A stretch of DNA of 32,845 nucleotides, the filler included, from Tricharina praecox (Eukaryota): the NCBI RefSeq assembly GCF_024521635.1. It is 7 parts of 7 records of this genome, joined end to end, with 100 filler letters (N's around TTAATTAATTAA, not from the genome) between each part and the next. Parts side by side here need not be neighbours in the genome. Positions count along the whole stretch, not along the records: positions 6,674 to 12,941 come from NW_026250494.1; 6 more parts are not named here. The stretch is one strand, 5' to 3'. Position numbers and translations under genes: made by a program. Numbering within the stretch: position 1 is the first letter of the stretch; the number at the start of each line of letters is the position of its first letter. The notes under the pieces were generated by a model. The model was not told where the DNA came from and did not search any database. It saw only the letters and a list, made by a program, of their open reading frames with translations. Positions 380-31,988 of this stretch are shown here, one piece after another.

Positions 380-938
380 TGTCACGGCTCGCGATGGAAT
401 GACGAAGGGAGGGTCGGCACAAGGACCGGGAGAGTTGGGGGGCAGTGCAGAGGCAGTGCACCGGCAGTGCAAGGATGAGTCGCAGAGGATTTGGGGCTGT
501 GTGCAGGGAGCAGGGATAGCGCAGCAATGAGTCGCAGGAGATTGGGGCTGTGTGCAGGAAACAGGGGTAGTGCGGCTGCGCAGGGTATGAGTCACGGAAG
601 TGGGGTACTGGCAAGGTGGATTTCTCAGGGTCTGGCACACGCCCACGGTCATTGTCAGGTTGCGGGAAGAAGTGGAGGATTTTCTATATAAACGGGCCGT
701 TGCCCCTCTGTATTTAGTTCTTCACGCAACAACTTGTTAATTCAACCACTGTTACCTCTGTCCTTGCCTCGGCTGCCGTCTGCGCCGTAGTCCTTGTCCC
801 TGCCTCTGTTCTCAGTTGCCGTCTGCACTGAGCCCTGCCTCACCTTGTCTCCTGAACCCGTCTTGCCTCTACTGAACCCAGAACCCGATCCCCAGCCCGA
901 CTTCGCTACCTGGAGCCTTGCCCGACCGTGCCGTTACA
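380..938 (+). repeat. 5' LTR of A1 (559 bp)
   Basis: TGTCACGG...CCGTTACA imperfect terminal inverted repeat; repeated at 6014-6572. Confidence 0.97.
685..692 (+). promoter_or_regulatory. TATA box of family-A LTR
   Basis: TATATAAA present in every family-A LTR copy covering this region, ~30-40 bp upstream of the inferred transcript start (724). Confidence 0.7.
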
Positions 939-940
939 CT

Positions 941-949
941 TTGTTGCGT
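941..949 (+). promoter_or_regulatory. Self-priming primer-binding site, family A
   Basis: TTGTTGCGT, 2 nt after the LTR, is the exact reverse complement of ACGCAACAA at 724-732; no TGG tRNA-type PBS. Confidence 0.85.
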
Positions 950-977
950 CCCCTATCTCTCCACCTAGCGAACTACC

Positions 978-2174
978 ATGGCCACCAACACTCAGGTACC
1001 CGACGTCCCCCAGCAGGACGAAGTACCAGTGGCACCCCCCTTCTACCGAGAAATTCCCGCCGCCATCTACGAACAACTCGAAATCATCGTCAATCATGAT
1101 GTACCCGCCGATGATGCAACCCTGATGGGGTTGTACAATGAATTCAGAATCCTCGCCCGCGCAATCACCCAGTCCCCAATAGCCGTACCGACCTGGCGAT
1201 TCGACGACCTCGAAGAACAACTTGCCGACGCCCGCCGCATCGCCAACCGCCTCGCAACCGTCGAAACCCAACCTCAAAGCCGCGCTGAGCGTGTCCCAGA
1301 GCCAGCCATGTTCGACGGAAACACGCGAGAAACTGGAAGGGTTCGTTGCGCAACTTCGACTCAAGCTGTACAGCGACCCAGCCCGTTTCCCAACTCCAGC
1401 ACTCCGAATGGCCTATGCCTTCAACCGCTTGGAAGGCCGCGCCCAAGCCCAGATCCTGCCGTACATCGAGAATCACAACATCACCCTCACCGACGCTGAT
1501 GCGATCATCACACTCCTGAACAACGCATTTGGTGACCCTGACCCAGCGGCCACCGCTCGAGCCAAGCTACACCACCTGAAACAAGGCAATAAGGAGTTCA
1601 CCTCCTACTTTGCGGAATTCCAGATGCTTGTCTCCAAGCTCAATTGGGACGAGCATGCGAAACTTGACGCGCTGCGAGAGGAGTATCCATCGAACTCCAC
1701 CGGCAACTTGTGGGCCGTACTCAGGGCCTCAACTACGATGAGTTTGTGGCCCTCTGTCAACGCCTTGACTCCGAGCTGCGTGCCCTCCAACTTTCGTGAG
1801 GGACGTCGCACCACCAACCCCCCTCGGCAGAGTAGCGCCCCACACCCGACGGCGCCGCTCAGGCACACCACCCACAACACCATGCCCGCGACGACCACTG
1901 CCACAGGAACGGCCCCGGAGCCATGGACTTGAGTGCCAACAGCCGCAGGATCCCAGACCAAGAGCGTGCTGCCCGGCTCCGCGAAGGCCGCTGCCTGTAC
2001 TGTGGGGGAAGTGGCCACATGGCCAGGCACTGCCCCAACAAGAACCGAAATCCGTTCCGAGCAGCCGTTGCCCGGCTGGAGTCAGCCCAGCCCACCAACA
2101 CCACCCCGACTCACACCTATCACAACTGCAACCAGGATTGCGGCGAGACCTCCCAGCAGTCGGGAAAAGCCTAG
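978..2174 (+). CDS. gag: Gag of A1 (frameshifted in this assembly)
   Basis: ORF pieces 978-1499, 1222-1932 and 1923-2174 are collinear with the intact 400-aa Gag at 14018-15220; CLYCGGSGHMARHC zinc knuckle. Confidence 0.9.
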
Positions 2175-2207
2175 ACCAACAACCGCTTGATGGCACTGTT
2201 GTTGGTC
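2162..2207 (+). promoter_or_regulatory. Predicted -1 ribosomal frameshift signal (gag-pol)
   Basis: G GGA AAA heptamer in gag phase at 2162-2168; 5-nt spacer; perfect stem GACCAACAAC (2174-2183)/GTTGTTGGTC (2198-2207); -1 frame open. Confidence 0.8.
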
Positions 2208-5200
2208 GTACCCAGGATAAGTCTTTGTCTCCTATGTCCCCTATTTTTCGTTTGTCTAGTCTTTCAGTGTCAGGAATGGTTGTGGAAGAATCATCAATGG
2301 AAGGAAAACATCTTGTTGTATTGTGTAACCTTTCGTTTGGTGACAAAAACTATTGCCACGCATGCGCTGATCGACTGTGGGGCAACCGGAATTGCATTTG
2401 TAGACAAAGACTTCGCCCGCCATCACCACCTACCCCTCGTACCCCTGAAATCCCCGCGAAGTCTCGAAGTCATCGATGGCCGTCCCATCGAGTCAGGCGA
2501 CATCACACATGTTGCCACCACCACCCTGTCCATACAGGAACACCACGAGGAAATCCCTATGTTTGTCACCAAACTAGGCCACTACCCCGTTGTACTCGGA
2601 ATCCCCTGGATGGACCTCCACGATGTGGCCATCCGGTTCAGCTCCCGAACCCTCACCTTTGGCTCCCAATACTGCACAGCCAACTGCAATGCGGTGCCCA
2701 CAGTTGCACATGGAATCACCACCGACCCACCTGACGTATCCACCTATGCTCTCGCGTCAAAAGCAGCTCAGCAAGAGCCAGCGGTAAGCGCGGGGGCCGG
2801 CGACATCGTGGCCCGCTACATTACGTCTCCCCCAAGGAAGAATCACCAAGAATGCACTAACCTTTCAAGGGAAAGCACAGTCAGAATCTCAGCCTTACAG
2901 ATGGAGTCATTCCAAGAACTGGTCAACAAGGAAAGCCTCACGATTTTCAACACCACGCTTGCCGAGGTCAACGGCGCACTGGAAGGAAACAAGGACCCCA
3001 CGGCACATATCCCTCACGAATACCACGAGTTCCTACCGCTATTCTCTGAAGCCCTTGCCCAGAACCTGCCCCCGCACCGACACTACGACCATAAGATTCC
3101 ACTCAAGGAGGGATTTACGCCCCCATACGGACCCCTGTACTCACTTTCGAAAACGGAGCTTGTCGCACTGAAGGAATGGCTTGACGACAACCTCCGCAAA
3201 GGTTTCATCCGTGCCTCTTCCTCTCCAGCAGCATCGCCAATCCTGTTTGTCAAGAAATCGGACGGCTCCCTACGCCTGTGTGTGGATTACAGGGGCCTGA
3301 ACGAAGGAACAATCAAGAACAGGTACCCACTCCCACTCCTCCAAGAAACTCTGATGCGGCTATCCGGGGCAAAATACTTCACTACCCTGGATATCCGTGG
3401 TGCCTACAACCTTGTGCGGATGGCGGAAGGAGAAGAGTGGAAAACTGCCTTCCGGACACGCTATGGGCTCTTCGAATCCCTCGTCATGCCCTTCGGCCTC
3501 ACCAACGCCCCTGCCGACTTCCAAGCTCTGATCAATGATGTGCTACGCCCGTTCCTCGACGACTTCTGTACCGCATTCATCGACGACGTCTTCATTTACA
3601 GCGGATCCTTAGATGAACACCGGAAACATGTCAGGAAAGTACTTCAGGCCTTATCAGCAGCCGGTCTGCATCTCAAACCCGAAAAATGTCATTTCCACCA
3701 GACCGAAGTCAAGTATTTGGGACTGATCATTACAACAAACGGGATCAAGATGGACCCATCGAAAGTCTCCTGCATACTGGAATGGGAGGAGCCGAGTACC
3801 GTCACCGATGTGCAATGCTTTCTGGGATTTGCGAACTTCTACCGGCGATTCATCCAAGACTATTCCAAGGTGGTATCCCCATTGACAGCATTGACCAAGA
3901 AGGAGGATGGAAAGTATGTTCCCTTCGTGTGGGGACCGGAACAGCAGAAAGCATTCGACGAACTAAAAACAGCATTCACCTCGGCCCCGATCCTCCGGCA
4001 CTTCGACTACGATCGGGAGATAGTAGTGGAAACTGACGCCTCCGACTACGTCTCTGCCGGAGTCCTATCTCAGTACGACGACGAGGGAATCCTGCACCCA
4101 GTGGCATTCTATTCCAAGAAACACTCCCCGGCAGAATGCAACTACGAGATCTATGACAAAGAACTCCTTGCAATCATCCGCGCCTTTGAGGAGTGGAGAC
4201 CACACCTGGAGGGCGCTCCTCACCCCATCCAAGTCCTAAGCGACCACAAGAATCTGGAGTATTTCATGACAACGAAACTACTCAACCGACGACAAGCGCG
4301 ATGGTCAGAGTTCCTTTCCCGTTTCCATTTCAAGATTGTCTACCGACCAGGCAAAGCGGGAGGAAAACCGGATGCACTGACCAGGAGGTCAGGAGACCTC
4401 CCTAAAGAAGGGGATGAAAGACTGCTTGCCAACCAGCAGGCAGTCCTGAAACCGGATAACCTACCGGAAGAGCTCCGGTTGGCAGCAACCAACACACCCG
4501 AACAAGACCGTCCCCTCCTCACGTCACTGATAACAGAAGGCTACGACATAGACCCCGTCCCAAATCGAATCCTCGAGCTACTCCGAAATGGTACACGCCA
4601 CTCGAAGGAGATCTCCTTGGCCGAATGCCGTGAAGTCAACGGGCGACTGATCTACCGAGACTGCCTCTATGTTCCAGAGTACGACCGACTCCGACTACGA
4701 CTGATCCAGGACCACCACGACCCACCAACCATGGGGCACCCAGGGCGCGCAAAAACCCTGGAACTACTTGCTCGAAGGTACTACTGGCCACAGATGCGAA
4801 AGGACGTTGACCAGTTTGTCCGAAACTGCCACACCTGCCGACGAACCAAGGCCACCCGGCACGCACCCTATGGTGTCCTGCGCCCCCTCCCAGTACCCGA
4901 GAAGCCATGGCAACACATCTCAGTCGACTTTGTCACTGGCTTACCGGCCTCAAAGGGGTTTGACGCCATCTGTGTTTTTGTTGACCGACTGACCAAGCAA
5001 CGCCATCTCCTACCATGTACCACGACCATCACCTCGGAAGGACTGGCCGAGCTGTTCTGCGACCGGATCTTCAGGTACCACGGGTTGCCAGAAACCATCG
5101 TCTCGGATAGGGGTCCCCAGTTTGCCTCGAGATTCTGGAAACACCTATGCTCATGCCTCAAGATCGAGCCACGCCTGTCAACTGCCTTCCACCCCCAGAC

Positions 5201-6164
5201 CGACGGCCAAACCGAACGGATGAACGCCGTCATGGAACAGCACCTCCGTGCGTACGTCAGCTACCTCCAGGATGACTGGGTCGACTACCTCTTCTTGGCC
5301 GAATTCGCCGGCAACAACCAGGTCTCCGACACGACTACCCTGTCCCCATTCTTCGCTAACCTAGGATACCACCCACGGTGTGACTTTGAGCTGGATATCC
5401 GTGTCGACACCAAGGAGGAACATCAAGCTCAGAGTGCAGCGGAACGGTTGCATCAAATCCACGACGTCGCCCGCAGCCAAATGCGGTATGCCCAGGCACG
5501 GCAACAGGACGACTCCGACCGACACCGAACCCCTGCGCCAGCCTTCCAACCAGGCGACATGGTATGGGTGGATGGTCGGAACTGGCGCACCGAGAGACCC
5601 AGTCGCAAGCTGGAAAACAAACACCATGGTCCCTACCGTGTGATTCGGACAATCGGAACCCACGCCTACGAATTGGACATCCCGGACACCGTTCAGAAGC
5701 ACCGAACATTTCCTGTATCCCTCCTTCATGCCTCCGCTGACGATCCCTTCCCTGGACAAATTCCACCGCCACCACTTCCGGTAATCGTGGACGACCAAGA
5801 AGAATGGGAGGTTGAAGAGGTCCTCGACAGCCGGAACCTCAGGGGCAAACTCCAGTACCTGGTGAAATGGAGAGGCTACGCGGCACCAACATGGGAACCA
5901 GAGGAGAACCTTACCGAGGTACAAGCTGTGGACGACTTCCATCGACGATACCCCATGCAGCCTGGACCAGTCGAACTTGCTCTCGTGGGAACTCGAGCCT
6001 TAGGAGGGACTACTGTCACGGCTCGCGATGGAATGACGAAGGGAGGGTCGGCACAAGGACCGGGAGAGTTGGGGGGCAGTGCAGAGGCAGTGCACCGGCA
6101 GTGCAAGGATGAGTCGCAGAGGATTTGGGGCTGTGTGCAGGGAGCAGGGATAGCGCAGCAATGA
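2162..6164 (+). CDS. pol: Pol polyprotein of A1: protease, RT, RNase H, integrase, chromodomain
   Basis: LIDCGA; RLCVDYRGLN, MPFGLTNAP, FIDD; ETDASD; HHCC, VDF/SDRG/ERMN; GPY; EWEVEEVLD..YLVKWRGY..TWEP. One extra A near 2345-2349. Confidence 0.95.
6002..6013 (+). promoter_or_regulatory. Polypurine tract of A1
   Basis: AGGAGGGACTAC immediately before the 3' LTR; AGGAGGGGCTAC at the same place in copy A2. Confidence 0.75.
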
Positions 6165-6572
6165 GTCGCAGGAGATTGGGGCTGTGTGCAGGAAACAGGG
6201 GTAGTGCGGCTGCGCAGGGTATGAGTCACGGAAGTGGGGTACTGGCAAGGTGGATTTCTCAGGGTCTGGCACACGCCCACGGTCATTGTCAGGTTGCGGG
6301 AAGAAGTGGAGGATTTTCTATATAAACGGGCCGTTGCCCCTCTGTATTTAGTTCTTCACGCAACAACTTGTTAATTCAACCACTGTTACCTCTGTCCTTG
6401 CCTCGGCTGCCGTCTGCGCCGTAGTCCTTGTCCCTGCCTCTGTTCTCAGTTGCCGTCTGCACTGAGCCCTGCCTCACCTTGTCTCCTGAACCCGTCTTGC
6501 CTCTACTGAACCCAGAACCCGATCCCCAGCCCGACTTCGCTACCTGGAGCCTTGCCCGACCGTGCCGTTACA
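6014..6572 (+). repeat. 3' LTR of A1 (559 bp)
   Basis: Same length as 380-938 and no difference found on reading. Confidence 0.97.
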
Positions 6573-6573
6573 C

Positions 6574-6673
6574 NNNNNNNNNNNNNNNNNNNNNNNNNNN
6601 NNNNNNNNNNNNNNNNNTTAATTAATTAANNNNNNNNNNNNNNNNNNNNNNNNNNNNNNNNNNNNNNNNNNNN
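6574..6673. other. Artificial contig spacer
   Basis: 44 N + TTAATTAATTAA (stops in six frames) + 44 N. Confidence 0.99.
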
Positions 6674-6757
6674 CTTGCCAGTACCCCGCTTCCGTGACTC
6701 ATACCCTGCGCAGCCGCACTACCCCTGCTTACTGCACACAGCCCCAATTCCTCCGGC

Positions 6758-9700
6758 TCATTCCTGCATTGCCGCCCGCGCAGCCCCTTGCACTGCCCCC
6801 GCGCTGCCTTCCCACCCCTGTTCCGACTCTTCCTCGAACGTCCCGTCGCGAGCCGTGACAGTAGCCCCTCCTAAGGCTCGAGTTCCCACGAGAGCAAGTT
6901 GAACTGGTCCAGGCTTCGTTGGGTACCGTTGGTGGAAGTCGTCCACTGCCTGTACGTCCACAAGGTTCTCCTCAGGTTCCCACGTCGGTGCCGTGAAACC
7001 CCTCCACTTGACTAGGTACTGGAGTCTTCCCCTCAGCGTTCTGCTGTCCAGCACTTCCTCCACCTCCCATTCTTCTTGGTCGTTCACAATTACCGGTAAC
7101 GGTGGCGGCAGGATCTGGCCGGGGAGGGCGTCGTCGGCCGATGCATGGAGGAGGGACACTGGGAAGGTGCGGTGCTTTTGGATGGTGTTCGGGATGTCCA
7201 GTTCGTATGCGTGGGTTCCTATGGCTCGGGTAATCCGATAGGGTCCGTGGTGTTTGTTTTCCAGTTTTCGGCTTGGCCGCTCCGTCCGCCAGTTTCGGCC
7301 GTCCACCCATACCATGTCTCCAGGCTGGAAGGCCGGTGCGGGGGTTCGGTGCCGGTCCGTGTTGTCCTGCTGCCGTGCTTGGGCGTAGCGCATCTCACTT
7401 CGGGCAACGTCGTGGATCTGTTGGAGTCGCTCTGCCGCTGTCTGCGCCTCTCGCTCTTCGTTCGTGTCGGTTCGGATGTCGAGCTCGAAGTCGCAACGGG
7501 GGTGGTAGCCTAGGTTAGCAAAAAACGGGGACAGGGTAGTGGTGTCGGATGCCTGGTTGTTGCCAGCGAACTCTGCTAAGAATAGGTAGTCGACCCAGTC
7601 GTCCTGCAGGTAGCTCACGTATGCCCGGAGGTGTTGTTCCATTACCGCATTCATCCTCTCTGTTTGACCGTCTGTCTGCGGGTGGAACGCCGTGGAGAGC
7701 CGTGCGTCGATCTTGAGGCAAGAGCATAGATGTTTCCAAAATCGTGAGGCAAACTGGGGGCCCCGGTCCGATACGATGGTGTCGGGTAGTCCGTGGTATC
7801 TGAAGATTCGATCGCAGAATAGTTCGGCGAGTCCCTCAGAGGTGATGGTCGTGTTGCAGGGGAGCAGGTGTCGTTGCTTGGTGAGGCGGTCCACAAATAC
7901 GCAAATGGCATCGAATCCTTTTGAGGGAGGGAGTACGGTTACGAAGTTGACGGATATATGTTGCCAGGGTTTCTCGGGTACTGGCAGTGGGCGGAGCACA
8001 CCGTAGGGGGCGTGTCTTGTTGCTTTGGTTCGTCTGCAAGTGTGGCAGTTCCTCACGAATCGGTCAACGTCCTTCCGCATCTGGGGCCAGTAGTAGTTCC
8101 GGGCCAGGAGTTCCAAGGTTTTTGCTCTTCCGGGATGGCCCATAGCCGGCGGGTCGTGGTGGTCCTGGATCAGGCGAAGTCTGAGTGGGTCGTGTTCAGG
8201 AACGTAGAGGCAATCGTGGTAATGTAATTGTCCGTTGACTTCGCTGCAGTCGGCGAGCGAGATGTCCTTTGAGTGGCGTGTTCCGTTTCTGAGCAGTTGG
8301 AGGATCTTGTTCGGCACTGGATCTGCCTGATATGCTTTGGTTATCAGGGTAGAGAGTGCGGGACGGGGTACTTCCAACGGGTTGGTTGCTGACAATTTCA
8401 ATTCTTCCGGCAGGTTTTGGGGCTTGAGGACTGCTTGTTGGTTCGCCAGCAGTCTTTCATCCCCCTCCTTAGGGAGGTCTCCGGACCTCCTTGTCAATGC
8501 ATCCGGTTTCCCTCCTGCTTTACCAGGTCGGTAGACGATTTTGAAGTCGAAACGGGACAGGAATTCCGACCATCGTGCTTGCCGGCGGTTGAGCAACTTG
8601 GCTGACATGAAGTATTCCAGGTTCTTGTGGTCGCTCAGAACTTGGATCGGGTGCGCGGCTCCTTCAAGGTGTGGTCTCCATTCTTCAAAGGCCCGAACAA
8701 TCGCCAATAATTCTTTGTCGTAGATTTCGTAATTGCATTCCGCCGGGGAGTGTTTCTTTGAATAGAAGGCAACTGGATGCAAGATTCCATCGTCGTCGTA
8801 CTGGGAGAGGATACCGGCCGATACGTAATCCGAGGCATCAGTTTCCACCACTATTTCTCGGTCGTAGTCGAAATGTCGGAGGATCGGGGCGCTAGTGAAG
8901 GCAGTCTTGAGAGTGTCGAAGGCTTGCTGTTGGTCAATACCCCATTCGAAGGGGACGTACTTCCCATTTTCCTTTTTTGTCATTGCCGTCAGGGGAGATA
9001 CCACCTTAGAGTAGTCCTGGATAAAGCGTCTGTAATAAAGTACACTGGGAAAGTACTATACCACTCGACCAAAAGGTATTTTGATGGCTGATGGCCATCA
9101 TCCCAGTAGCTACTTAAGGCCAGGATTTCTGAACTGTGACAGCGTCGGTAGAAGTTCGCAAAGCCCAAGAAACACTGCACATCCGTTACCGTCGTCGGTT
9201 TTTCCCATTCGAGTACGCAAGAGACTTTGGCAGGATCCATCTTAATACCTTCCGTGGTTATGATCAGGCCCAGGTGTTTGACCTCCGCCTGGTGGAAGTG
9301 GCATTTCTCCGGTTTTAAATGCAGTCCGGCCGATGAAAGGGCGCGTAGCACTTTGGTGACCTGTTTTCGGTGTTCTTCCAGTGACGCGCTGTAGATCAAG
9401 ACGTCATCTAGGAAGGCGGTACAGAAGTCGTCCAGGAACGGTCGTAAAACGTCGTTGATCAGGGCTTGGAAGTCGGCTGGCGCGTTGGTTAGCCCGAAAG
9501 GCATTACCAATGATTCGAAAAGTCCGTAGCGGGTCCGGAAGGCCGTTTTCCATTCCTCCCCTTCTGTCATTCGTACCAGGTTGTAAGCACCGCGGATATC
9601 CAGTGTTGTAAAATACTTTGCACCGGACAGTCGCATCAAGGTTTCCTGGAGCAGGGGAAGTGGGTAGCGGTTCTTGATGGTTCCTTCGTTCAGGCCTCGA

Positions 9701-10824
9701 TAGTCCACACACAGTCGCAAGGAGCCGTCCGATTTTTTGACAAACAGGATCGGTGATGCCGCTGGTGATGAGGACGCACGGATAAATCCCTTGCTCAGAT
9801 TGTCGTCAAGCCATTCCTTGAGTGCGACCAGCTCGGTTTTCGAGAGCGAATAGAGGGGTCCGTAAGGGGGCACAAATCCTTCCTTTAGTGGGATCTTGTG
9901 GTCGTATTGCCGATGGGGTGGTAGGTTCTGCGCCAACCTTTCGGAGAAGAGGTGGAGAAATCCGTGATATTCGGGGGGAATGTGGGCGGTTGAGCTCTGT
10001 TTTTCTTCAGATAGAACTTCATTGATCTCCCTCAGGGTCGTGGTGAAGATGGTGAGGTTCTCCTTTCCTGCCATCTGCTGGAAAGACTTCATTCGGAGGG
10101 CTGAGATTCTGACCGTGGGTTTTCTCTGGTTAGCATCCTGCTGGTGTTCATTGATCTGGGGAGACGTAACGTATCGGGCCACGATGTCGCCGGCCCCCGC
10201 ACTTACCGCTGGCTCCTCCAGAGCTACGTTTGGTGCGAGAGCGTAAGGTAGTTCCGGTGGGTCTGTGGTGATACCGTGGGCTACTGTGGGTACCGTATTG
10301 CAGTGTGCAGTGCAATATTGGGAACCAAAGGTGAGGGTGCGTGAGCTGAATCGGATGGCCACGTCGTGTAGGTCCATCCAGGGAATTCCGAGTACGATTG
10401 GGTAGTGCCCCAGTTTGGTGACGAACATCGGGAGTTCTTCATGGTGCTCTTGGATTGACAGGGTGGTGGTGGCAACGTGTGTGATGTCACCGGACTCGAT
10501 GGGGCGGCCGTCGATGACCTCAAGGGCGCGCGGGGATTCAAGGGGTACAAGGGGTAGGTTGTGATGGCGGTCGAAGTCTTTGTCTACAAAGGCGATTCCG
10601 GTTGCTCCACAATCGATCAGCGCATGCGTGGCAATGGTTTTGTCACCAAACGAAAGGTTACATAGTACAACGAGATGTTTTCCTTCCATTGATGATTCCT
10701 CCACTACCATCCCAGACACTGACAAATTGGACAAACGAAAATGAGTAGAAAAGGGAGAAAAAGACTTATCCTGGGTACGACCAACAACGGTGCCATCAAG
10801 CAGTTGTTGGTCTAGGCTTTTCCC
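6758..10824 (-). pseudogene. pol: Pol of A2, disrupted by a 111-bp insertion
   Basis: ORFs 8989-10860 and 6758-9004 join when 9031-9146 is removed; FLDD; first integrase Asp changed to Asn (VNF, 7946-7948); slippery site at 10818-10824. Confidence 0.93.
9031..9141 (-). mobile_element. 111-bp TG...CA mini-element (mini solo LTR / TRIM-like), copy 1
   Basis: TGTCACAG...TTATTACA on the minus strand; perfect TSD GCGTC at 9026-9030 and 9142-9146; interrupts pol at FYRR/FIQD. Confidence 0.92.
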
Positions 10825-11327
10825 GACTGCCCTTGGTTGTCGCCACAATTCTGGTTGCAATTGTGGTATGGGTGGTCGGGGGTCAGGGTTCCAGGTTGCT
10901 CGTGCGTCAGCTGTGCAGCTGCGGCACGAAAAGGGTTCCGATTCTTGTTCGGGCAGTGTCGGGCCATGTGGCCACTGCCTCCACAGTATAGGCAGCGACC
11001 CTCGCGGAGACGCGCAGCTCGTTCTTGATCAGAGATCTTGCGACTGTTCGCGCTGAGGTCCATAGCCCCTGGGGCTGTTCCGGTTGCAGTGGTTGCCGGT
11101 GGTGTACTGTTATCCGTTTGATTCCTCGGCGGAGCTGGGGGTTGCGAGGTGGGGTTTTGTCGCTGGGGGTTGCGGCCGCCTTCACGGAGTTGGAGGGCAC
11201 GTAGCTCGGAATCGAGGCTCTGGCAGAGAGCCACGAACTGGTTGTAGGTCAGTCCCTGAGTGCGGCCCACCAGTTGTCGGTGGAGCTCGATGGAGACTCC
11301 TTCGCGGAGTGCGTCGAGTTTGGCATG
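10812..11327 (-). pseudogene. gag: 3' part of A2 gag
   Basis: HAKLDALREG...CLYCGGSGHMARHC...QSGKA*; cut by the LTR ending at 11328. Confidence 0.9.
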
Positions 11328-11837
11328 TGTAACGGCACGGTCGGGCAAGGCTCCAGGTAGCGAAGTCGGGCTCGGAATCGGGTTCTAGGTTCGGCAGAGA
11401 CAAGACAGGTTCAGAGGACAAGGTGAGGCAGGGCTCAGTGCGGACGGCAACTGAGAACAGAGACAGGGACAAGGACTACGGCGCAGACGGCAGCCGAGGC
11501 AAGGACAGAGGTAACAGTGATTGAATTAACAAGTTGTTGCGTGAAGAACTAAGTACAGAGGGGCAACGGCCCGTTTATATAGGAAACCCTCCACTTCTTC
11601 TCGCAACCTGACAATAACTGTGGGCGTGTGCCAGACCCTGAGAAATCCACCTTGCCAGTACCCCGCTTCCGTGACTCATACCCTGCGCAGCCGCACTACC
11701 CCTGCTTACTGCACACAGCCCCAATTCCTCCGGCTCATTCCTGCATTGCCGCCCGCGGAGCCCCTTGCACTGCCCCCGCGCTGCCTTCCCACCCCTGTTC
11801 CGACTCTTCCTCGAACGTCCCGTCGCCAGCCGTGACA
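11328..11837 (-). mobile_element. Complete family-A solo LTR (510 bp) with non-matching flanks
   Basis: TGTAACGG at 11328 to CCGTGACA at 11837; flanks GCATG versus GGTAT; no PBS or PPT. Confidence 0.92.
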
Positions 11838-12192
11838 GGTATGAGTCACGGAAGTGGGGTACTGGCAAGGTAGATTTCTCAGAGTCTGGCACACGCCCAT
11901 GGTCATTGTCAGGTTACGGGAAGAAGTGGAGGATTTCCTATATAAACGGGCCGTTGCCCCTCTGTATTTAGTTCTTTACGCAACAACTTGTTAATTCGAC
12001 CACTGTTACCTCTGTCCTTGGCTCGGCTGCCGTCTGCGCCGTAGTCCTTGTCCCTGCCTCTGTTCTCAGTTGCCGTCTGCACTGAGCCCTGCCTCACCTT
12101 GTCCCCTGAACCCATCTTGCCTCTGCCGGACCCAGAACCCGATCCCCAGCCCAGCTTCGCTACCTGAAGCCTTGCCCGACCGTGCCGTTACA
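11838..12192 (+). mobile_element. 3' portion of a family-A LTR
   Basis: Matches ~584-938 and ends CCGTTACA; followed by family-B pol rather than a PBS. Confidence 0.92.
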
Positions 12193-12702
12193 ACCGCGGC
12201 GCCTCCCACGAGAGCACAGATTCCACCTTGTCCTTAGCCATCTCAATTCCATCTTGGGATATCATGTATCCTCGGAACTCGACTCTCCCTGTTGACCCGA
12301 CACACTTCTCTGGTGAGATTGCCAGCTTATTGTCTTTCAACCTCTTTAGTACCTCGATGACTATCTTGTCATGCTCTTCCTGCGTTTTCGCACAGATGAG
12401 TATGTCATCGATGTAGGCGAGCAGCCCCAGGTCCAACGTATCCTGAAGTATATGGTTAATCATGTCCTGGAACGTTGCTGGAGCGTTGGTCAGCCCAAAC
12501 AGCATGACCAACTACTCGAATAGTCTGTATTGACAGCGGAAAGTCGTCTTCCACTCGTCACCTTCCTTGATGCGAATAAGGTCATAGCCATTGTTCAGAT
12601 CAATTACAATGAAGACTTTCGCACCTCTGACTCGGTCTTGCAACTCTGCCATGGTCTGGAGTGGGTAGCGATTGGCTACGGTAATCTTCTTGATACCGCG
12701 AT
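12193..12702 (-). pseudogene. pol: Family-B reverse transcriptase fragment
   Basis: FGLTNAPATFQ...AYIDDILI...SWEAPR; near-identical to 25955-26111 where they overlap. Confidence 0.9.
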
Positions 12703-12813
12703 TGTCACAGTTCAGTTATCCTGGCCTTAAGTCGCTACTGGGATGATGGCCTTCAGCCATCAAAATACCTTTTGGTCGAGTGGTATAGTACTTTCCCAGT
12801 GTACTTTATTACA
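12703..12813 (+). mobile_element. 111-bp TG...CA mini-element, copy 2
   Basis: 4 differences from copy 1; flanks GCGAT/ATTAG do not match. Confidence 0.92.
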
Positions 12814-12941
12814 ATTAGGTACTAGGTTCGGCAGAGGCAAGACAGGTGAGCAGGACAAGGCAAGGCAGGGCTCAGTGCGCAAGGCAACTGAGAATAGAGG
12901 CAGGGACAAGGGCTGGGGCGCAGAAGGCAGCCGAGGCAAGG
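12814..12941 (-). mobile_element. Diverged family-A LTR fragment (U5 region)
   Basis: Aligns to ~11377-11503. Confidence 0.85.
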
Positions 12942-13041
12942 NNNNNNNNNNNNNNNNNNNNNNNNNNNNNNNNNNNNNNNNNNNNTTAATTAATTAANNN
13001 NNNNNNNNNNNNNNNNNNNNNNNNNNNNNNNNNNNNNNNNN
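12942..13041. other. Artificial contig spacer
   Basis: 44 N + TTAATTAATTAA + 44 N. Confidence 0.99.
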
Positions 13042-13468: not shown

Positions 13469-14017
13469 TGTCACGGCTCACCACGGAATGTTTGAGGAAG
13501 AGTCGGAATAGGGGTCGGAAGGCAGCGCAGGGGCTGCGCAGGGGGCTGCGCAGGCGGCAATGCAGGAATGAGTCGGAGGAATTGGGGCTGTGTGTTGGAG
13601 ACAGGGGTAGCGCGGCAGCGCAGGCTGTGAGTCACTGGAGCGGGGTATCGGCGAGGAGGATTTCTCAGGGTCTGGCACACGCCCACGGTCATTGTCAGGT
13701 TGCGGGAAGAAGTGGAGGATTTCCTATATAAACGGGCCGACGCCCCCCTGTAATTAGTTCCTCACACAACAACTTGTTAATTCAACCACTGTTACCTCTG
13801 TCCTTGCCTCGGCTGCCGTCTGCGCCGTAGTCCTTGTCCCCGCCTCTGTCCTCAGTTGCCGTCTGCACTCCGCCCTGCCTCACCTTGTCCCCTGAACCTG
13901 TCTTGCCTCTGCCGTACCCAGAACCCGATCCCCAGCCCGCCTTCGCTACCTGGAGCCTTGCCCGACCGTGCCGTTACACTTTGTTGTGTCGCCCATCTCT
14001 CCACCTAGCGAAAAACC

Positions 14018-16500: not shown

Positions 16501-17492
16501 TCTACGAAAGGTGATAAGAAGGATTGGCAATGGACGCCCGAGATGCAGAAATCCTTTGACGATCTGAAGAAACGCTTCACTACCGCTCCGATACTGGCCC
16601 ACTTCCAGCCCAATGAACCAGTTATCGTTAAAACAGACGCATCGGATTTTGCCCTCGGTGCCGTCCTATCCCAGAAGGATGAAGACGGAAGACTGCACCC
16701 TGTCACCTACCATTCGAGGAAATTCTCTCCCGCGGAAATCAACTACGAAATCCACGACAAAGAGCTACTCGTGTGACACCCCGATAGGTATCGGAGGTCA
16801 CGACGGTCGCAAGAGTTGTGATTAGATAGTTCGGGTGATTAGAATAGAGTTGCGAGCCGAAAGGATAGTTAGAAGCGATCAGGGACAAGATAGGAAGGAG
16901 GGAGCAAACGGATTCCAGAGTCTAGACAGTGATCGGAGATGCGGGAGATCGGGATAACAGTCCAGAGGACTTTGAGATCTCCGATCATAGGGCCCCGCAG
17001 TAGGAACTCCGATCCAGGAAAAAACTGTTATGACGAGAGAATCGAACATCGACCGATGGGGGCAGACAACTTCGAGCGAAGAACTCTGCCGGCGCATGAG
17101 GGAGATAATTGCTCGGAAACTCCGATCTATCTTGGGCGCGTGGTGTTTACCACCTGCCTAGTCGAGAAGACTATCCGAAGAGAGCTGACGACGACTCAAG
17201 GCTAGGCCGCGGAACTCCGATGCAAAGGAAGCAACGGAGCTACGTTAGGCCGCACTCTAGAGGAATCACGTGCTGAGGATTGGGACGACTATAAAGTCGA
17301 ACCGAGCGGGCAACCGAACAAACTACAATCATCGCACCGAACAAACCATCGAACAAACACCCTTAAGATTATTCCGTTGTGAATTGTCGAAATCCCTGAC
17401 TTTTATTCTATCCTCGATATCACCATAGACTCCGACGACACCAACCCGTCCCAGTCTCACAACTCGCCATTGTCGATGCTTTCAAGCACTGG
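16501..17492 (+). pseudogene. pol: Family-B-type (B2) RT connection/RNase H fragment, interrupted by a solo LTR
   Basis: [20 protein letters not shown]...KTDASD...YEIHDKELL, resuming AIVDAFKHW after 17466; paralogous to 29267-29400. Confidence 0.9.
16772..17461 (+). mobile_element. Family-B solo LTR (690 bp)
   Basis: TGTGACAC...GTCTCACA with perfect TSD ACTCG (16767-16771, 17462-17466). Confidence 0.96.
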
Positions 17493-17613
17493 GGTTAGGG
17501 TTAGGGTTAGGGTTAGGGTTAGGGTTAGGGTTAGGGTTAGGGTTAGGGTTAGGGTTAGGGTTAGGGTTAGGGTTAGGGTTAGGGTTAGGGTTAGGGTTAG
17601 GGTTAGGTTAGGG
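17492..17613 (+). repeat. Telomeric (TTAGGG)n tract at contig end
   Basis: About 20 units, one TTAGG variant; G-rich strand runs toward the contig end. Confidence 0.95.
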
Positions 17614-17713
17614 NNNNNNNNNNNNNNNNNNNNNNNNNNNNNNNNNNNNNNNNNNNNTTAATTAATTAANNNNNNNNNNNNNNNNNNNNNNNNNNNNNNN
17701 NNNNNNNNNNNNN
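17614..17713. other. Artificial contig spacer
   Basis: 44 N + TTAATTAATTAA + 44 N. Confidence 0.99.
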
Positions 17714-18301
17714 AGGAACTCGAGTTTCGTAAGACACTCTGGTGCTTTTCTGTGCCAACCTCCAAGATCTCCGTCCAGTATCCATGCATTATTCCATCAT
17801 CCGAGTACCAACCCCAACCCCAACCGCAACCCCGAATTCCCAGGCCGGTGGTCTTCTCGGGTTCGTCAGTATTAGCTCCACTATATATTCTACCAGCGGA
17901 GGGGCTGGGAATCTTGGCGGCGAGGGTCATACGGGCGCAAAGTGTTTCGGGTAACACTTTCCCCTTTGGGTAGCCGGACCGAGAGACGGATGTACCCGCG
18001 TGAAATTGCTCGATATATATCCGAGGAAATATGTATGCATCCCGCAGCCTGCCGATGTACTACCCAGCTGGCTTTGTGGCTGTCACCAGTTTCATCTCAG
18101 ACGTGTAGGTAATGCTTGGAGATTGGCTCGCGTGAGTTGCGAGTAGATGGTGGTTTAACCGAGGATTGAGGCTCACGTCACGTGAGACTCCTGAGAGAAG
18201 CCTGGATCTGGTGCGCGACAACTTCCAGTGCCTGGCCTGAAACTAGAGTGGTTACTATGGAGAACTTGCTGCTACCAGATATCGGAGGCTACGCCTGGGA
18301 A

Positions 18302-18727
18302 AAGCAACGAGCAGCCAATCGGAACGTTTTTAACACGGAATTTCCCGCAACCACTGAGCCGTCCATGTCGATACGGTTCACGACTCGCCTGGTTCCTGGT
18401 ATCCGCCGATACGGTACTCCACTGTCTCATGGATCAGGCCTCACACAGTGGTAATGCACATGACCTTCAAAGTGGACGGTTCCCCGCGATTCTGGTCCAC
18501 GTAAGAATGCGCACCTTTGGTAGCGTTGTAAGCGTCGCAGAAGTTTCTTATTTCGAACCTTCCACGCGCAAATCACGGGCGCTCGCTCTCCTGTACCACC
18601 GGGCATCCGACTACGCTCCCATACTGATCGATGGGGGACGAAGTAAAACGCAATGCGAGTCACAGCTGATGAAGCAACGAGCAGCCAATCGGAACGTTTC
18701 TAACGTGGAACTTCCGGCCAAAACTGA
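18302..18727 (+). repeat. 56-bp imperfect direct repeat, 370-bp spacing
   Basis: 18302-18357 and 18672-18727; first 28 nt identical (AAGCAACGAGCAGCCAATCGGAACGTTT). Confidence 0.85.
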
Positions 18728-18904
18728 ATGCCGCGGATTTTCGGTACCCTCCCTACACCCGTCTCTCATCACAGCAAACGCTGTAACCACGAAATGGTAG
18801 GTGTTATCGGTTCTCCGCTCTCGGTCGCAGTTGCACCCCGCTGGATGTGCTCAGGTATTGCGATGCGCGGGTGCTGGACGCCATTCAAGCGCGGCACATT
18901 CGGC

Positions 18905-18973
18905 GCGTTCTCACCCGATGAGCAGCTCCTCGCATCGCGGTCGCGCGAATATACCGCTCAACTCTGGAATCCG
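18905..18973 (+). pseudogene. Single degenerate WD40 repeat (fungal NLR/HET-E type)
   Basis: AFSPDEQLLASRSREYTAQLWNP resembles AFSPDGxxLASxSxDxTVxLWD. Confidence 0.6.
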
Positions 18974-20732
18974 ACCTCCTGCCGACGACATGTGCCTGTA
19001 GTCGGAGCCCGGTGCTTCCATCCGCAGTACCCGTGGTGCCTGTTATCTTCGTCGATGAGCCCATGTAAGAGACTAGCGCAATGCTTCTCTCGTGGGCAGC
19101 TAACCTCGCCAGCTAGCACTGTGTTCACGTTTGTCTGTTGCACCGCTCATCGTAGGCGACTTAGATCGCAATGTATCACACTCGGCCCACGTTCCTTTTT
19201 TTCCACCTGCGGTTCGGTAACGGTCTGGGCCCGATACCCTTGTTGCTCCGTCCTGCGCCAACGTCTCTTTCCAGTTTCGATATCGGGATCGCAGACTTCG
19301 ATCGGCGGCTGTTGAGATCGGTCTTCGGGAGGGATCACGCCTGCGGTCAGTGATAGTACATAGCAGCCCGTGTGGACGCGTCAGCTCGTGTCGTTGGTTT
19401 AAGCTTAACGATGTGGCCGACAGGGATACCAGGGCATGGTAGCGTCATCAGATGTGGATTAATGGCCTCCTGGTTCCAATTCCGACTCAATTCGTTGCCC
19501 TAAAACGTCGCTCTCGGCTATCGTACCTTCTTCCCTCTGTGACTCACGCTTTTTTTCCCCGTACCCGGGGTGGTCAACTTATGACCGGACTACAGGAGAG
19601 AGGCAAAAACGGATGAGGAACAAAAACGTGAATGATTCGAAGAGAGTTCGATTATGATGACGACGATGATAAGAAAACAAGGACGGCAGAAATAGTCGCG
19701 GCAAAAACATCTAAGCATAGGACGACCGCATCAAGTCTTCCTTTAGAAAGATTGGCATCAGTGTCACCCCCAAGACAGCCGGTCTCACCAGGTCCCGGCA
19801 AAGTCACTCTTAGAGCCGATAGTAGGGTCCCGCTCTTCGGCAATTGGTCTCACTCAGGTCTGACGAAGCCCCGCTCCTTCGGCGCTCACCGATGATGCCA
19901 TTGAAACGCAGCCGGCAGATACAAAGAAATCAGATAGCCTCACAGATTTCACGCACACATTAGCAGCCACCTGCAGATGGCATTTAACTTGGACGACTCG
20001 AAATCCGACCAGATGCGTGGCATACGAGCCCGGAATCACGTCAACTCCATCCATAGGCAGAACCCGACTATCAAGACTCCAAGTCTCCCCTCCTTAACAC
20101 ATTATGGCATCTATTCACAATAATATTTTTCACGATTTACAAGAACGGGATCGGAGAAGTGAGTGAGAGCAAATGATCCGATGCACAAAACGTTCTGATT
20201 GATCAACACGTAGTCATGAGGATGCACTCGTTTGTGCTAGCAATTGCTACGATTGGCGATGAAATCGGATGTTCCGAGCGTGCGATCATGCACGAGATCA
20301 TCAAGCAGGTAACTTGTGTCCAATATAAGTTGTCAGCGGCACAATAGTCGAGATGAAAGTAGCGTGGAAACGGGGGGGGGGGCGGGGTGGGATGGGTGGA
20401 TATTGCGATGATCTACATCGGACGCATGCAATCTATGAATAAATAAAGAAAATCTCAGCGAGGCAGAGCAGTAAGGAGCGGAAGCTGTTTTTCTTAGAAT
20501 CTGTTTTTTTCAGGTGCGCTGTACCTCTATCGATGGGACTGGCCAGGGCGCAGGGTAGGGTAAGCCACATCGGGCTGTTCGACAAAAGTTGCGATAGAAA
20601 GTGGCGTGTAAACAGAGTATGGATATTGCTATGTTCTAGCTAGGTAGGTCGCATGGAATCAATGTTGAAACAAGATAACAGCTTCTAGAGGTACTTGATA
20701 CATGGCCCCAACAAAAAAACACTTTATGTAGA

Positions 20733-21772
20733 TCAGTCCAGCGGCGTCTGTCCGCACAGACCACTTGGCTGCTCCCTGGTCGATGAGACGCTGGCTCCTC
20801 GATCAATCAGCAATCGGGCCACTGCCTCGCGCCCTTTGTCGCGGCCATGTGCAGTGGCGTCCACCCGTCACTATTGGCTGCCAAGACGTCGGCTCCTCGA
20901 TCAATCAACAGTCGGGCCACCTCCTCGTTCCCATATACAGAAGCCAAGTGCAGTGGCGTCCACCCGTCACCAGCGGCTGCCGAGACGTCGGCTCCTCGAT
21001 CAATCAGCAGTCGGAATATCGGATTGTGCCCTCTCTGCAAGGCCAGTGCCAATGCCCCTCGCCCTTTTTCATCAACAGTAAAGACGTCGCCTCCCACATC
21101 CAGCAATAGCTGGAGAATTTCCAGATCTCCAACCAAGGACGCTTGCAGAAACAACCGGTCTATGCATGCCTGTTCTACAATAGTAGACTCCAATGCAGTC
21201 GTAAACCACCGTACCAAGCCAAACACACAGACCGAGGAAAATGCATCGCGGTATCCATCCTGCATCGTCTGAGACCTCTCCCAACAGTCGTTTGGATCCT
21301 AACTCGAGATCTGAACACACGATCGATGATACTTCACCCATCGATCGTGGTTATCGCCTGATAAAAATGTCTTCCAAAGACTAGCCAATATCTGACGACT
21401 GATGTTTCCGTCTTCGCACTGACGGAGGTGCCATGGCCAGAAAGCCGCCGAATACAAGAGCAGGTGACAATTGCTGTGATTCAGGGTGCTCCATACAAGG
21501 TTCACGTCGTACTCATTCCAAGCGACAGGAGTGCTTGGCAGGGAAAGGCACACTTTCGCTATTTCCGTGTGACAATCGACCTCGCGCAGTTGTGTTTCCA
21601 AGTATTCGTCCACGGAGAGGTGTGCGAAGCGGAAAACGTCCAGGCCTTCGTCCAGAATGAGTAGGTTCTGGCAGGCTTTCAGCAAGTCATTCGGCTTGAG
21701 TAGCGTGTCGTGCAAAAATTCTCCCGAGTCCGAGTCAATTTCGACGGTGATTGCGTCGCGCAGGATTTTCGA
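20733..21772 (-). pseudogene. 3' part of an NLR-like (NACHT-type winged helix + ankyrin repeat) gene, disrupted
   Basis: LLKACQNLL...VFRFAHLSVDEYL, then ankyrin repeats (GADV...DGWTPLH). In-frame TAG at 21299-21301, 1-nt frameshift near 20835, final TGA at 20733. The NACHT domain itself is not in the contig. Confidence 0.82.
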
Positions 21773-21872
21773 NNNNNNNNNNNNNNNNNNNNNNNNNNNN
21801 NNNNNNNNNNNNNNNNTTAATTAATTAANNNNNNNNNNNNNNNNNNNNNNNNNNNNNNNNNNNNNNNNNNNN
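21773..21872. other. Artificial contig spacer
   Basis: 44 N + TTAATTAATTAA + 44 N. Confidence 0.99.
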
Positions 21873-25854: not shown

Positions 25855-25954
25855 NNNNNNNNNNNNNNNNNNNNNNNNNNNNNNNNNNNNNNNNNNNNTT
25901 AATTAATTAANNNNNNNNNNNNNNNNNNNNNNNNNNNNNNNNNNNNNNNNNNNN
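25855..25954. other. Artificial contig spacer
   Basis: 44 N + TTAATTAATTAA + 44 N. Confidence 0.99.
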
Positions 25955-29614: not shown

Positions 29615-29714
29615 NNNNNNNNNNNNNNNNNNNNNNNNNNNNNNNNNNNNNNNNNNNNTTAATTAATTAANNNNNNNNNNNNNNNNNNNNNNNNNNNNNN
29701 NNNNNNNNNNNNNN
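29615..29714. other. Artificial contig spacer
   Basis: 44 N + TTAATTAATTAA + 44 N. Confidence 0.99.
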
Positions 29715-30789
29715 ATGTTTTGCTACACGATATTTTTGATTGTTTGTGGCGTTGGGCCTACATCTAGTGATATGCCTCCGCCGCGTTTTGGCTTGGTGCC
29801 ATGGTGCCTGTCGTCTGATGATTGCGGGCAGTGCTAGCGAGCTAGATGTCACCCGGTTCGTGTTTGACCGACAGAGGATACTTTTCAGCATTTCCAAGGC
29901 GATATCAGTTTTTGTTGCCCAGATTGAGGTTGCACCCAGTGATATACCTTCAGCGGCATCCACGACGAGTAGGCGACTGTGGCGTTGCTGCTGGCGGAAT
30001 CGGGTCTTCTCTGATCGGCGGAGATTGGGTCGGGCACCGTAGTGCCACCAATCTTCTGTTTTCGAACAGCGTGAGTACACTCGTTATCATTCTCTTCTCC
30101 TTCTGTCCGAAGTGGAGGCTTCCCGGTGCCCTCTGAGGTGGAATTGGCGATGGCGGCCCCTTTATAAGGTCAGCTTTGACTTTACTGACGATCGGCACTG
30201 AAATTTAGCAGGTACCGATTGCGGGAGGATGATTGAACTCGGCGATAGTTCGCTTTTGACTGGGTGTGTGAGCCGCGGAAGTTGCGCTGAGATGTAAGGT
30301 AATGCCAGAAATAAGAGGTTTCTGAAGTGAGGAGTTTATGATTCATATTTCCTCTACAACTCTGCTTTTCAGCGAAACCAAAAATCAGACTAACCTCTTC
30401 CTGGCGCACCTCTTCTCCGAGCAATGCCCTGTCTAGCCTAGCGTCCTTTATGTGACTGTGAAATCATGCTCCGCACACGTGTAATTCCCCCATAGCCGAT
30501 GCTAACTGAAGCTCTCACGTGGAAGACGTCACAGGCACGGGGTACACCGCCAAGATATCGCCTTCCCGCACTGCGCAGATACAATCCGTCAATTTTGGCG
30601 CACAACACACGAGCTATAGATAGGGATAGCCATCCAAACCGTGATCACGTCAACTATACGTATCGCCGTCGAGCCGTATGAAGTGTATTTGAACCGCCAC
30701 CTGCATTTTTCGGGCTGGGCACATCAGGGATTGTTTTCTTTGAGCACGTAGTCTCCTGCGGTTATACGATTTGCCACGCTGGATACGTG

Positions 30790-30900
30790 GAGTGCGTTTG
30801 AAGCGTCAGAACGGCTCCACGTTATCATACGGCGTGATCAAGACGTCAAATATTGCGTTAGAACACGAAGGGTGGATTATGGTTCGGCGAAAATGGGCTT
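30790..30900 (+). pseudogene. Possible protein kinase relic (catalytic loop to DFG-like motif)
   Basis: Across two frameshifts reads ERLHVIIRRD/KTSNIALEHEG/VDYGSAKMG. Confidence 0.45.
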
Positions 30901-31384
30901 TTCCGGTGTCAAACGGCCCTGGGGAAAACTTTTTGAGGTGGCACTGTATACAATCTCAGTATTTACACCGCGTCGTCTCCCTCAACCCTTCCGTGACCTC
31001 ACCCTGGAGGAGGTACCCCTTGATTCAGCTGCTCTCTCGGTTGTTGGATATCTGCCAAGACGCCGACAATGCAGAAGGCGGCTCGGTTTGCGTATGTGTG
31101 GTGGGAAGAATGGAGGCCCAGGCGAGGACTCGCTCATCCAACAGTGCTATGTCCTGCGGTCGGAACTCGTCCGGCTGGGCATAGCATGCCTACATAATAC
31201 AAACACAGCTAGACCAGCCACACGACGTGCGACCAGTGGGCCCCGCTTTGTTGGATAAGCGAGTAGCAGCAGCTACAATGGTATGCAAAGCAGCAGTTTG
31301 CTTCTATATGTTTTCGTTGTCCGGCCCCTTCATTCAAGTTACCTCGCCCTTGAATGATCGACTGACTCGGCTGTCTCCCTCACC

Positions 31385-31620
31385 GTTCTCCCTCCTCCAC
31401 CATCAGCATCCTCTCTCTCTATCTCTTCCTACCTTTCTTCGTCCTCCACGTTTAACATCCTCTCTCTCTCTCTCTCTCTCCCTCTCTCTCTTCCCACTTT
31501 CCTTCATCCTCCGCCATCAACATCATCTCTCGCTCTCACTCTCTCTTCTTGCCACAGTGCTACTACACCATCAATTGTCTCTTTCAAGGCTTCCCTTCAA
31601 AAACTTTCCCCCCCCCCCCC
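31385..31620 (+). repeat. CT-rich low-complexity tract with (CT)n runs, CCATCA-containing units and poly-C
   Basis: Read directly from the sequence. Confidence 0.85.
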
Positions 31621-31622
31621 GC

Positions 31623-31988
31623 GGCATCAGCGAAGCATTGAACGACGACGAATTGAAGGAAAAGATTGACCTCAGTAAGTTTCAAAATCTATCTCACATA
31701 TGTCGGCAGAGATGACTGAGTCATTGCAGGTGACGGGGCGCACCGTGACGACCACAGTCAGCCGCGCGCGCGGCGTTCAGTTCGGGCCGCCGATGAGCAG
31801 ATTCTTGGGAGCGATCTGAAAACAAATCTGTTTGCAAGTGCGGATAAGGAAGCGGTAAGTTTTCTTTCCGTCCTTCATCTAAACATCGGGAATGTGGGCA
31901 CTGACAATGGCCGGGCGGATAGATCTTCAGATTACCGGAACAGCACGCAGTGGAATCCTTCTGCCGCACTGTCGGGGGGTTTAATTAG
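31623..31988 (+). CDS. Possible small spliced gene segment, unknown product (start undefined)
   Basis: Introns 31675-31729 (GTAAGT..ACTGAG..CAG) and 31855-31922 (GTAAGT..ACTGAC..TAG); frame open through the middle exon. Confidence 0.4.

Follow-up and report, generated by a model that had tools for sequence, protein, structure and literature searches.

The window considered here is a stretch of 32,845 nucleotides from Tricharina praecox (assembly GCF_024521635.1), built from seven small unplaced contigs that contain only repeats. Its central feature is a 111-bp unit present in two copies, one of which is inserted into a retrotransposon of the chromovirus type. The contigs are joined by artificial linkers (44 N, TTAATTAATTAA and 44 N) at 6574-6673, 12942-13041, 17614-17713, 21773-21872, 25855-25954 and 29615-29714; adjacency across them is meaningless, and the linkers themselves come up as an 18-copy repeat family in the repeat search. 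Both copies of the unit lie on a single contig (6674-12941). Retrotransposons of two families, designated A and B, are referred to throughout. The features on which the argument is built are as follows.

9031..9141, minus strand: copy 1 of the 111-bp unit, TGTCACAG...TTATTACA, read as a solo long terminal repeat (LTR); placed by loose ends and by an empty-site joint
9026..9030, no strand: left target-site duplication, GCGTC; single copy in the empty-site contigs
9142..9146, no strand: right target-site duplication, GCGTC; seen in the sequence and supported by the run contigs
12703..12813, plus strand: copy 2 of the 111-bp unit; 4 differences in 111, no target duplication
6674..11837, minus strand: A2, a defective family-A chromovirus and host of copy 1; RVT_1, RNase H, Integrase_H2C2, rve, SH3_Tf2-1 and Chromo domains
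380..6572, plus strand: A1, candidate autonomous partner; LTRs at 380-938 and 6014-6572

When read on the minus strand, copy 1 runs from TGTCACAG to TTATTACA and displays TG...CA termini. Compared to the window by BLAST, the 111-mer matches copy 1 and copy 2 only (E 1.35e-60 and 4.75e-51), followed at a distance by a 13-base word (E 0.041). Copy 2 departs from copy 1 at element positions 14, 15, 31 and 50. The pol open reading frame of A2 is interrupted by copy 1 between ..FLGFANFYRR and FIQDYSKV.., while its paralogue A1 (3815-3875) is uninterrupted at the corresponding site (CFLGFANFYRRFIQDYSKVV). The first-pass annotation had proposed that a 111-bp unit with a perfect GCGTC duplication splits the A2 pol, and that a second copy with four differences lies at 12703-12813; the coordinates, the frame break and the empty site described below all agree with the former, and the latter was seen as described. 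Reading the insert as an intron was rejected: removal of a GT..AG segment leaves five extra bases, and both the paralogue and the empty site show a duplication. A stable RNA fold of the unit was also considered, and the calculation was uninformative: z-scores were -1.94 and -2.01, and an equally good fold was reached by 7 and 6 of 200 shuffles.

Contigs from four public sequencing runs were aligned to positions 8900-9270. Runs X1 and X4 belong to one sample of an organism designated A, X13 to a different sample and study of the same organism, and X3 to a soil metagenome. The exact empty site is directly observed in two of the four runs, X1 and X3, with one contig each. In both, position 9024 is joined to 9141, which skips 116 bases, i.e. 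the 111 bases of the unit and one 5-base duplicate; six letters at this joint fit either side. The X1 contig (depth 18.5) has no other letter in 225 flanking bases and the X3 contig (depth 100.6) a single one in 255. The flanks of the empty and filled pol are thus nearly identical and the insertion is recent. Metagenome runs from soil, sediment, phyllosphere and air also contain sequence of the window; together with the Tf2-like chromoviruses and a contig ending in (TTAGGG)n (17492-17613), this gives the sequence a fungal appearance.

The same alignments show that the unit is dispersed. Contigs of X3 depart from it at 9030, 9031 and 9032 (n=9, 10 and 3) on one side and at 9141 and 9142 (n=10 and 11) on the other, and those of X4 and X13 depart at the same places, so that the edges of copy 1 are supported by loose ends from three runs. 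The consensus agreement of the X3 flanks is low (0.42-0.53), which implies many different flanks and therefore a dispersed unit. Among the contigs listed, six from X3 and two from X13 carry the whole unit with 9-12 differences, and an older subfamily therefore exists. In terms of summed contig depth, which the tool warns is not copy number, the unit by far exceeds the element that hosts it: 2000-4000 over the unit against 100.6 on the retrotransposon flanks in X3, and 160-305 against 0 in X13. An assembly artefact at copy 1 could be suspected, because the contigs are small and unplaced and no X1 contig among those listed bridges the filled junction. However, the site also exists in its empty form, and an assembler would not generate a perfect 5-bp duplication there; the ends of the element moreover match those of dozens of other loci, which makes the chance of such an artefact close to negligible.

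Loose ends inside the unit were observed as well, at 9037 in X13 and at 9138 in X4, where the unit is itself interrupted at other loci. By eye, one of the interrupting contigs runs into the 3' end of a family-A LTR and another into the start of a family-B LTR; nesting therefore goes both ways.

The evidence for a larger element comes from contigs that leave the unit at one end and re-enter it at the other. Record 2 of X1 (328 bases) comprises unit positions 10-111 and one base, then 185 bases, then one base and unit positions 1-39. The 30 bases at its start recur at its end as one and the same stretch of the unit, from which it follows that the contig is cyclic, with a period of 298 bases. Record 11 of X13 (327 bases, depth 78.4) breaks down into 37, 185 and 105 bases and gives the same cycle by arithmetic. 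A cycle of about 298 bases, made of the 111-mer and about 187 further bases, is therefore present in two samples of organism A (X1 and X13). Since a two-LTR element yields precisely such a cycle in de Bruijn assembly, the element would consist of a 111-bp LTR, an internal region of about 187 bp and a second 111-bp LTR, i.e. a non-coding element of about 409 bp. This would be the size and organization of a TRIM, or miniature retrotransposon with terminal repeats, a class of elements shorter than 1000 bp with terminal repeats of 100-250 bp (PMC6934838; papers are cited by PMC identifier). Our preferred reading is accordingly that copy 1 is the solo LTR of a TRIM-type non-autonomous element of about 409 bp, and we assign a probability of roughly 0.7 to this statement as a whole; that the unit is an LTR-type miniature element is held with still greater confidence. 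The earlier suggestion, in which the unit is the solo LTR belonging to a tiny non-autonomous element, thus gains support from the empty site, the dispersal with exact ends, the 298-base cycles, and the purine tract and internal start described below, whereas its variant, in which the 111 bases would be a whole micro-element, is disfavored.

A 298-base cycle could also arise from a satellite-like tandem repeat that contains the 111-mer, with the unit spreading by some other route. A cyclic contig is what an array is expected to give, head-to-tail joints of the unit with two letters listed between the sides are present in X4 and X3, and arrays of TRIMs are known (LTR-11_DR, PMC10886601; Wukong, PMC4528315). 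This explanation nevertheless appears improbable: solo copies with exact ends, the duplication and the empty site require insertion of the integrase type, and the letters beside the LTR resemble a polypurine tract (PPT) and the primer-binding site (PBS) of family A. The known TRIM arrays are in addition secondary products of unequal crossing-over, and an array would be an addition to the TRIM more than a rival to it. No better prospects can be granted to the possibility that the 111-mer, as a solo LTR, stems from an autonomous element with unusually short LTRs located outside the window, the small form being its deletion derivative. Any LTR element could show TG..CA ends, a 5-bp duplication and dispersal, and the searches were confined to window sequence. 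Against this, the sole LTR-to-LTR continuation assembled, in two samples, is one of 185-187 bases, and no coding internal region adjoins either copy of the unit.

The letters adjoining the unit at other loci were read in the element orientation from consensuses of loose ends, each built on few and short contigs; in what follows a slash marks the LTR boundary. Behind 9142, X4 gives ..CTTTAAAGAGGGGATAC/TGTCACAG (five contigs, median 14 letters, agreement 0.69; core AAAGAGGGGATAC/TG) and X3 gives ..GAGGGGAAAC/TG (11 contigs, agreement 0.43). A purine tract thus precedes the repeat by 3-4 bases, at consensus quality, in the position expected of a PPT; this position fixes the orientation of the unit, in agreement with the first-pass annotation. 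The corresponding junctions of family A are ..TTAGGAGGGGCTAC/TGTCACGG in A2 and ..TTAGGAGGGACTAC/TGTCACGG in A1 (in short form ..GGAGGGGCTAC/TG), and that of family B is ..GGGAGGGGAGATGG/TGTGACAC. By eye, the 14 bases ahead of the LTR match A2 in 11 of 14 and family B in 7 of 14.

On the other side, X4 reads TTATTACA G TTTGTTGGTTGCC... before 9030 (two contigs, agreement 0.73), with TTACA G TTTGTTGGTTG and G TTTGTTGG.. as shorter readings of this PBS-like start. Four family-A copies display CCGTTACA C TTTGTTG(C/T)GTC.. after their 5' LTR, or in shorter form TTACA C TTTGTTGCGTC and C TTTGTTGCG.., so the 7-mer TTTGTTG occupies the same offset after the LTR in the miniature element and in family A. 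The LTR ends of family A and of the unit are TGTCAC and TTACA, those of family B TGTGACAC and GTCTCACA. The interior of the unit is unlike either family, as the first-pass annotation had stated: local alignment to family-A and family-B LTRs gave scores of 14-18 against shuffle means of 15.9-17.5, and 90 to 193 of 200 shuffles scored at least as high as the real alignment. At its tips, its PPT junction and its first internal bases the miniature element therefore resembles family A (in the last two places not B), at the level of letters compared, while the LTR interior does not. Shared cis signals beside an unlike LTR interior form the pattern of a non-autonomous element and its helper.

A miniature inverted-repeat transposable element (MITE) from a superfamily that makes 5-bp duplications would share the small size, the high copy number, the exact ends and the duplication. 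The inverted tips of the unit however match in only 5 of 8 positions, with TGT/ACA as the sole contiguous part (by eye), where a terminal inverted repeat of about 10 bp or more is the usual criterion, and MITEs do not typically form head-to-tail cycles in which a purine tract precedes the 5' end. A MITE is thus very unlikely.

The helper would most likely be family A itself, whose reverse transcriptase, RNase H and integrase would copy and insert the miniature element in trans. A1, the candidate partner, is intact and young. Its LTRs are identical (561/561 bases, one flanking base per side included), a frame of 1329 aa is open at 2175-6164 (no start codon required) and contains all pol domains, and the PBS (941-949), a self-primer segment (724-732) and the PPT (6002-6009, followed by CTAC) can be located. 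In both A1 and A2, RVT_1, RT_RNaseH, Integrase_H2C2, rve, SH3_Tf2-1 and Chromo follow the Ty3/gypsy order of chromoviruses, with the chromodomain at the C-terminus of the integrase. Judging from these features, A1 has probably been inserted very recently, may still be active, and is a credible active source of the three enzymes. A2 is defective. Its 5' LTR (11328-11837) and its 3' LTR (6674-6860, cut by the contig start) differ by 2 mismatches in 188 bases, and about 700 bases after the 5' LTR are deleted (PBS and gag N-terminus), the sequence resuming at the equivalent of A1 position 1654. That family A is the helper is favored to a modest degree. The use of a chromovirus integrase, as originally proposed, is in keeping with the resemblance of the junctions to family A; the link to this particular partner was drawn from consensus letters of low agreement.

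In family A, as represented by A1, no PBS of the tRNA type was found. Instead, TTGTTGCGT after the 5' LTR of A1 (941-949) is complementary to ACGCAACAA within the LTR (724-732), the latter segment lying 34 bases after the TATA box TATATAAA; an equally good 11-base match was obtained in 31 of 1000 shuffles of the A1 LTR. Three copies keep both segments. The pairing is 9/9 in A1, again 9/9 in A3 (13469-14000), where a double change is compensated (ACACAACAA paired with TTGTTGTGT), and 7/9, or 8 with one G-U pair, in an older copy at 24344. Family A thus appears to be self-primed like Tf1. The likeness to Tf1, Tf2 and Tj1 extends to the combination of SH3_Tf2-1 and Chromo, the missing tRNA-type PBS and the complementarity of PBS and LTR (PMC4600332), with the difference that self-priming in family A is deduced here from complementarity.

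A similar arrangement was sought in the miniature element. The 11 bases after its leading G form 9 of 11 Watson-Crick pairs with its own LTR positions 52-62, a value reached by 34 of 5000 shuffles; when G-U pairs are allowed, 10 of 11 positions pair, as do those of 1902 of 5000 shuffles. Such a complementarity is suggestive only. A bolder reading would see in the miniature element a dedicated parasite of a self-primed chromovirus, imitating its LTR tips and PPT junction, with a self-primer of its own (LTR 52-62) and a tRNA-free start of reverse transcription; this extension of our reading is rather doubtful.

The history of the locus can then be proposed as follows. A full element would have inserted itself into a family-A chromovirus, within pol, generating the 5-bp duplication; its two LTRs would then have recombined, leaving one behind. 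Alternatively, a shortened form may have integrated directly without any LTR recombination. The family as a whole is of high copy number and was recently active.

A number of observations weigh against the TRIM interpretation. The window holds no full-length copy of the miniature element, and a search of it for internal-region motifs taken from the loose ends, with up to 3 mismatches, found none, so that it contains no concealed piece of the internal region. The cycle of a two-LTR element would equally be produced by a 298-base unit in tandem array or by a one-LTR circular DNA, and the second piece of X13 record 11 was deduced from the 'side 37' entry of the joint table. A 5-bp duplication is certain at one copy only, copy 2 being devoid of it; a possible second one in X13, GATGC and GATGT, matches in 4 of 5 positions and depends on assigning to a single record two loose ends that each come from one contig. 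The filled junction, as mentioned above, is not bridged by any listed X1 contig. The letters assigned to the PPT and PBS come from few short contigs with agreements of 0.43-0.73. The tips separate A from B weakly: at the 5' end, 7/8 positions match A and 6/8 match B, and at the 3' end both families match in 5/8. The match of the unit to the ends of family-A LTRs, noted in the first-pass annotation, is thus real as regards TGTCAC and TTACA, but the ends of family B are nearly as close. Finally, fungal TRIMs of the Helenus group share PBS regions with Copia partners (PMC10886601), whereas the junctions seen here resemble a Ty3/gypsy chromovirus.

The surroundings of copy 2 are of a different nature. 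The unit is flanked there by GCGAT and ATTAG, without target duplication, and is bordered by two fragments:

12193..12702, minus strand: reverse transcriptase fragment, family B-like, from a second type of chromovirus; abuts copy 2, one in-frame stop
12814..12941, minus strand: LTR-A-like fragment, inverted and truncated, corresponding to about positions 383-510 of the 559-bp LTR; abuts copy 2 and reaches the contig end

Two unrelated flanks that meet the ends of the unit exactly imply either recombination between copies at two loci or an assembly chimera. Copy 2 may thus be the product either of inter-copy recombination, as reported between Cassandra elements (PMC4079214), or of short-read assembly crossing from one locus to another through the repeat. 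A 5'-truncated LTR-A was also observed at 11838-12192, between A2 and the family-B-type reverse transcriptase fragment, and the contig consequently carries a nest of at least three insertions.

Several groups of miniature retroelements carry modules derived from small RNAs, and these were searched for in the unit. No tRNA was detected by ARAGORN in its standard, -ps and -ps80 modes, either in the unit or across the observed head-to-tail joint; the laxest mode, -ps60, returned one match, on the complementary strand of copy 2 only, which was taken as noise. An Rfam scan of positions 8900-9300 with E up to 10 gave nothing inside the unit and a chance proV match outside of it. The boxes A and B that characterize the LTR of Helenus/TRIMp3 were not found by ARAGORN or Rfam, nor was a GGTTC by eye. 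Sequence derived from 5S rRNA, as in the LTR of Cassandra or Ajax, had no Rfam match with E up to 10. As for a hammerhead ribozyme, no Rfam family matched, and the sole CUGAUG word is followed by G, not A (by eye). In view of these missing tRNA, 5S and hammerhead matches, the unit is not a Helenus, Cassandra, Ajax or retrozyme element. The same results bear on a short interspersed nuclear element (SINE) or another retroposon derived from a small RNA. Comparison by eye with the box-A consensus brought out two similar words, TGGTCGAGTGG (unit positions 71-81) and TAGCT...GGG (30-40). They are however within chance (a rough estimate of about 0.04 per word for 111 bases on both strands), neither ARAGORN nor Rfam at E up to 10 finds a small RNA, and the unit ends in TG..CA without any A-rich or simple-repeat tail. 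A SINE is likewise very unlikely.

A 22-mer of the element 3' end, together with a two-ended pattern, had no match in metagenome, viral and genome contig collections, from which the organism is possibly absent; the 22-mer was not found in the Helenus supplement (PMC10886601) or in literature text either.

The element is close to described TRIMs in most respects, being non-coding, ended by TG..CA, flanked by a 5-bp duplication and presumably dependent on an autonomous partner. Solo LTRs, tandem arrangements and products of inter-element recombination are likewise on record for such elements (Cassandra, PMC4079214; Wukong, PMC4528315). It differs from them in that its two-LTR structure is deduced from cyclic contigs instead of being read at a locus, in an internal start that is unlike a PBS matching a tRNA 3' end (no TGG), and in having no similarity to anything searched. 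SMART (FRetro129) of grasses, 292 bp in length with 85-bp repeats and a 122-bp internal region, has 5'TGT..ACA3' ends and a 5-bp duplication, and its solo LTRs of 79-87 bp also carry 5-bp duplications (PMC3281118). In comparison, the present element is larger (about 409 bp), belongs to another kingdom and is unrelated in sequence; SMARTs moreover favor genes, according to the same source, whereas the unit was found here inside retrotransposons, in a window made of repeat-only contigs. Helenus TRIMs of basidiomycetes occur in hundreds of copies, many of them as solo LTRs, with 5-bp duplications, and the 120-bp LTRs of Helenus-1_SMo, from the plant Selaginella, are similar in size to the unit (PMC10886601). 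The LTR of Helenus nonetheless carries tRNA-derived boxes A and B, according to that source, and none was detected in the unit.

Other features of the window include a family-B LTR at 16772-17464, situated 27 bases from a (TTAGGG)n array of the telomere type (17492-17613) at the end of a contig, and a short internal repeat at about 20786-21014. Open reading frames of 150-200 aa on the contigs at 17736-21772 and 29737-32845 had no Pfam match.

The anatomy of TRIMs is already known. The family described here is apparently new and may already be catalogued in Repbase or Dfam. Its potentially new aspect is that it may represent a family devoid of any small-RNA module, whose cis signals mimic those of a self-primed chromovirus. 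Our literature searches retrieved no description of a self-primed TRIM; self-priming is raised as a mere possibility for bivalve TRIMs in PMC6934838, which also indicates that TRIMs often have no identified partner. In other respects, the element is an ordinary component of a repeat-rich region and unsurprising to a specialist. On the practical side, a dispersed 111-bp repeat breaks short-read assemblies, as may have happened at copy 2 with its chimeric flanks, and could be used as a strain-typing marker. If our reading is correct, a TRIM of about 409 bp, high in copy number and active until recently, coexists in this organism with an intact autonomous element that is its plausible partner. 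Such a pair, with matching PBS, PPT and LTR tips, would provide a system to define the cis signals that suffice for mobilization in trans, and would be especially useful if priming is ensured by the element's own RNA.

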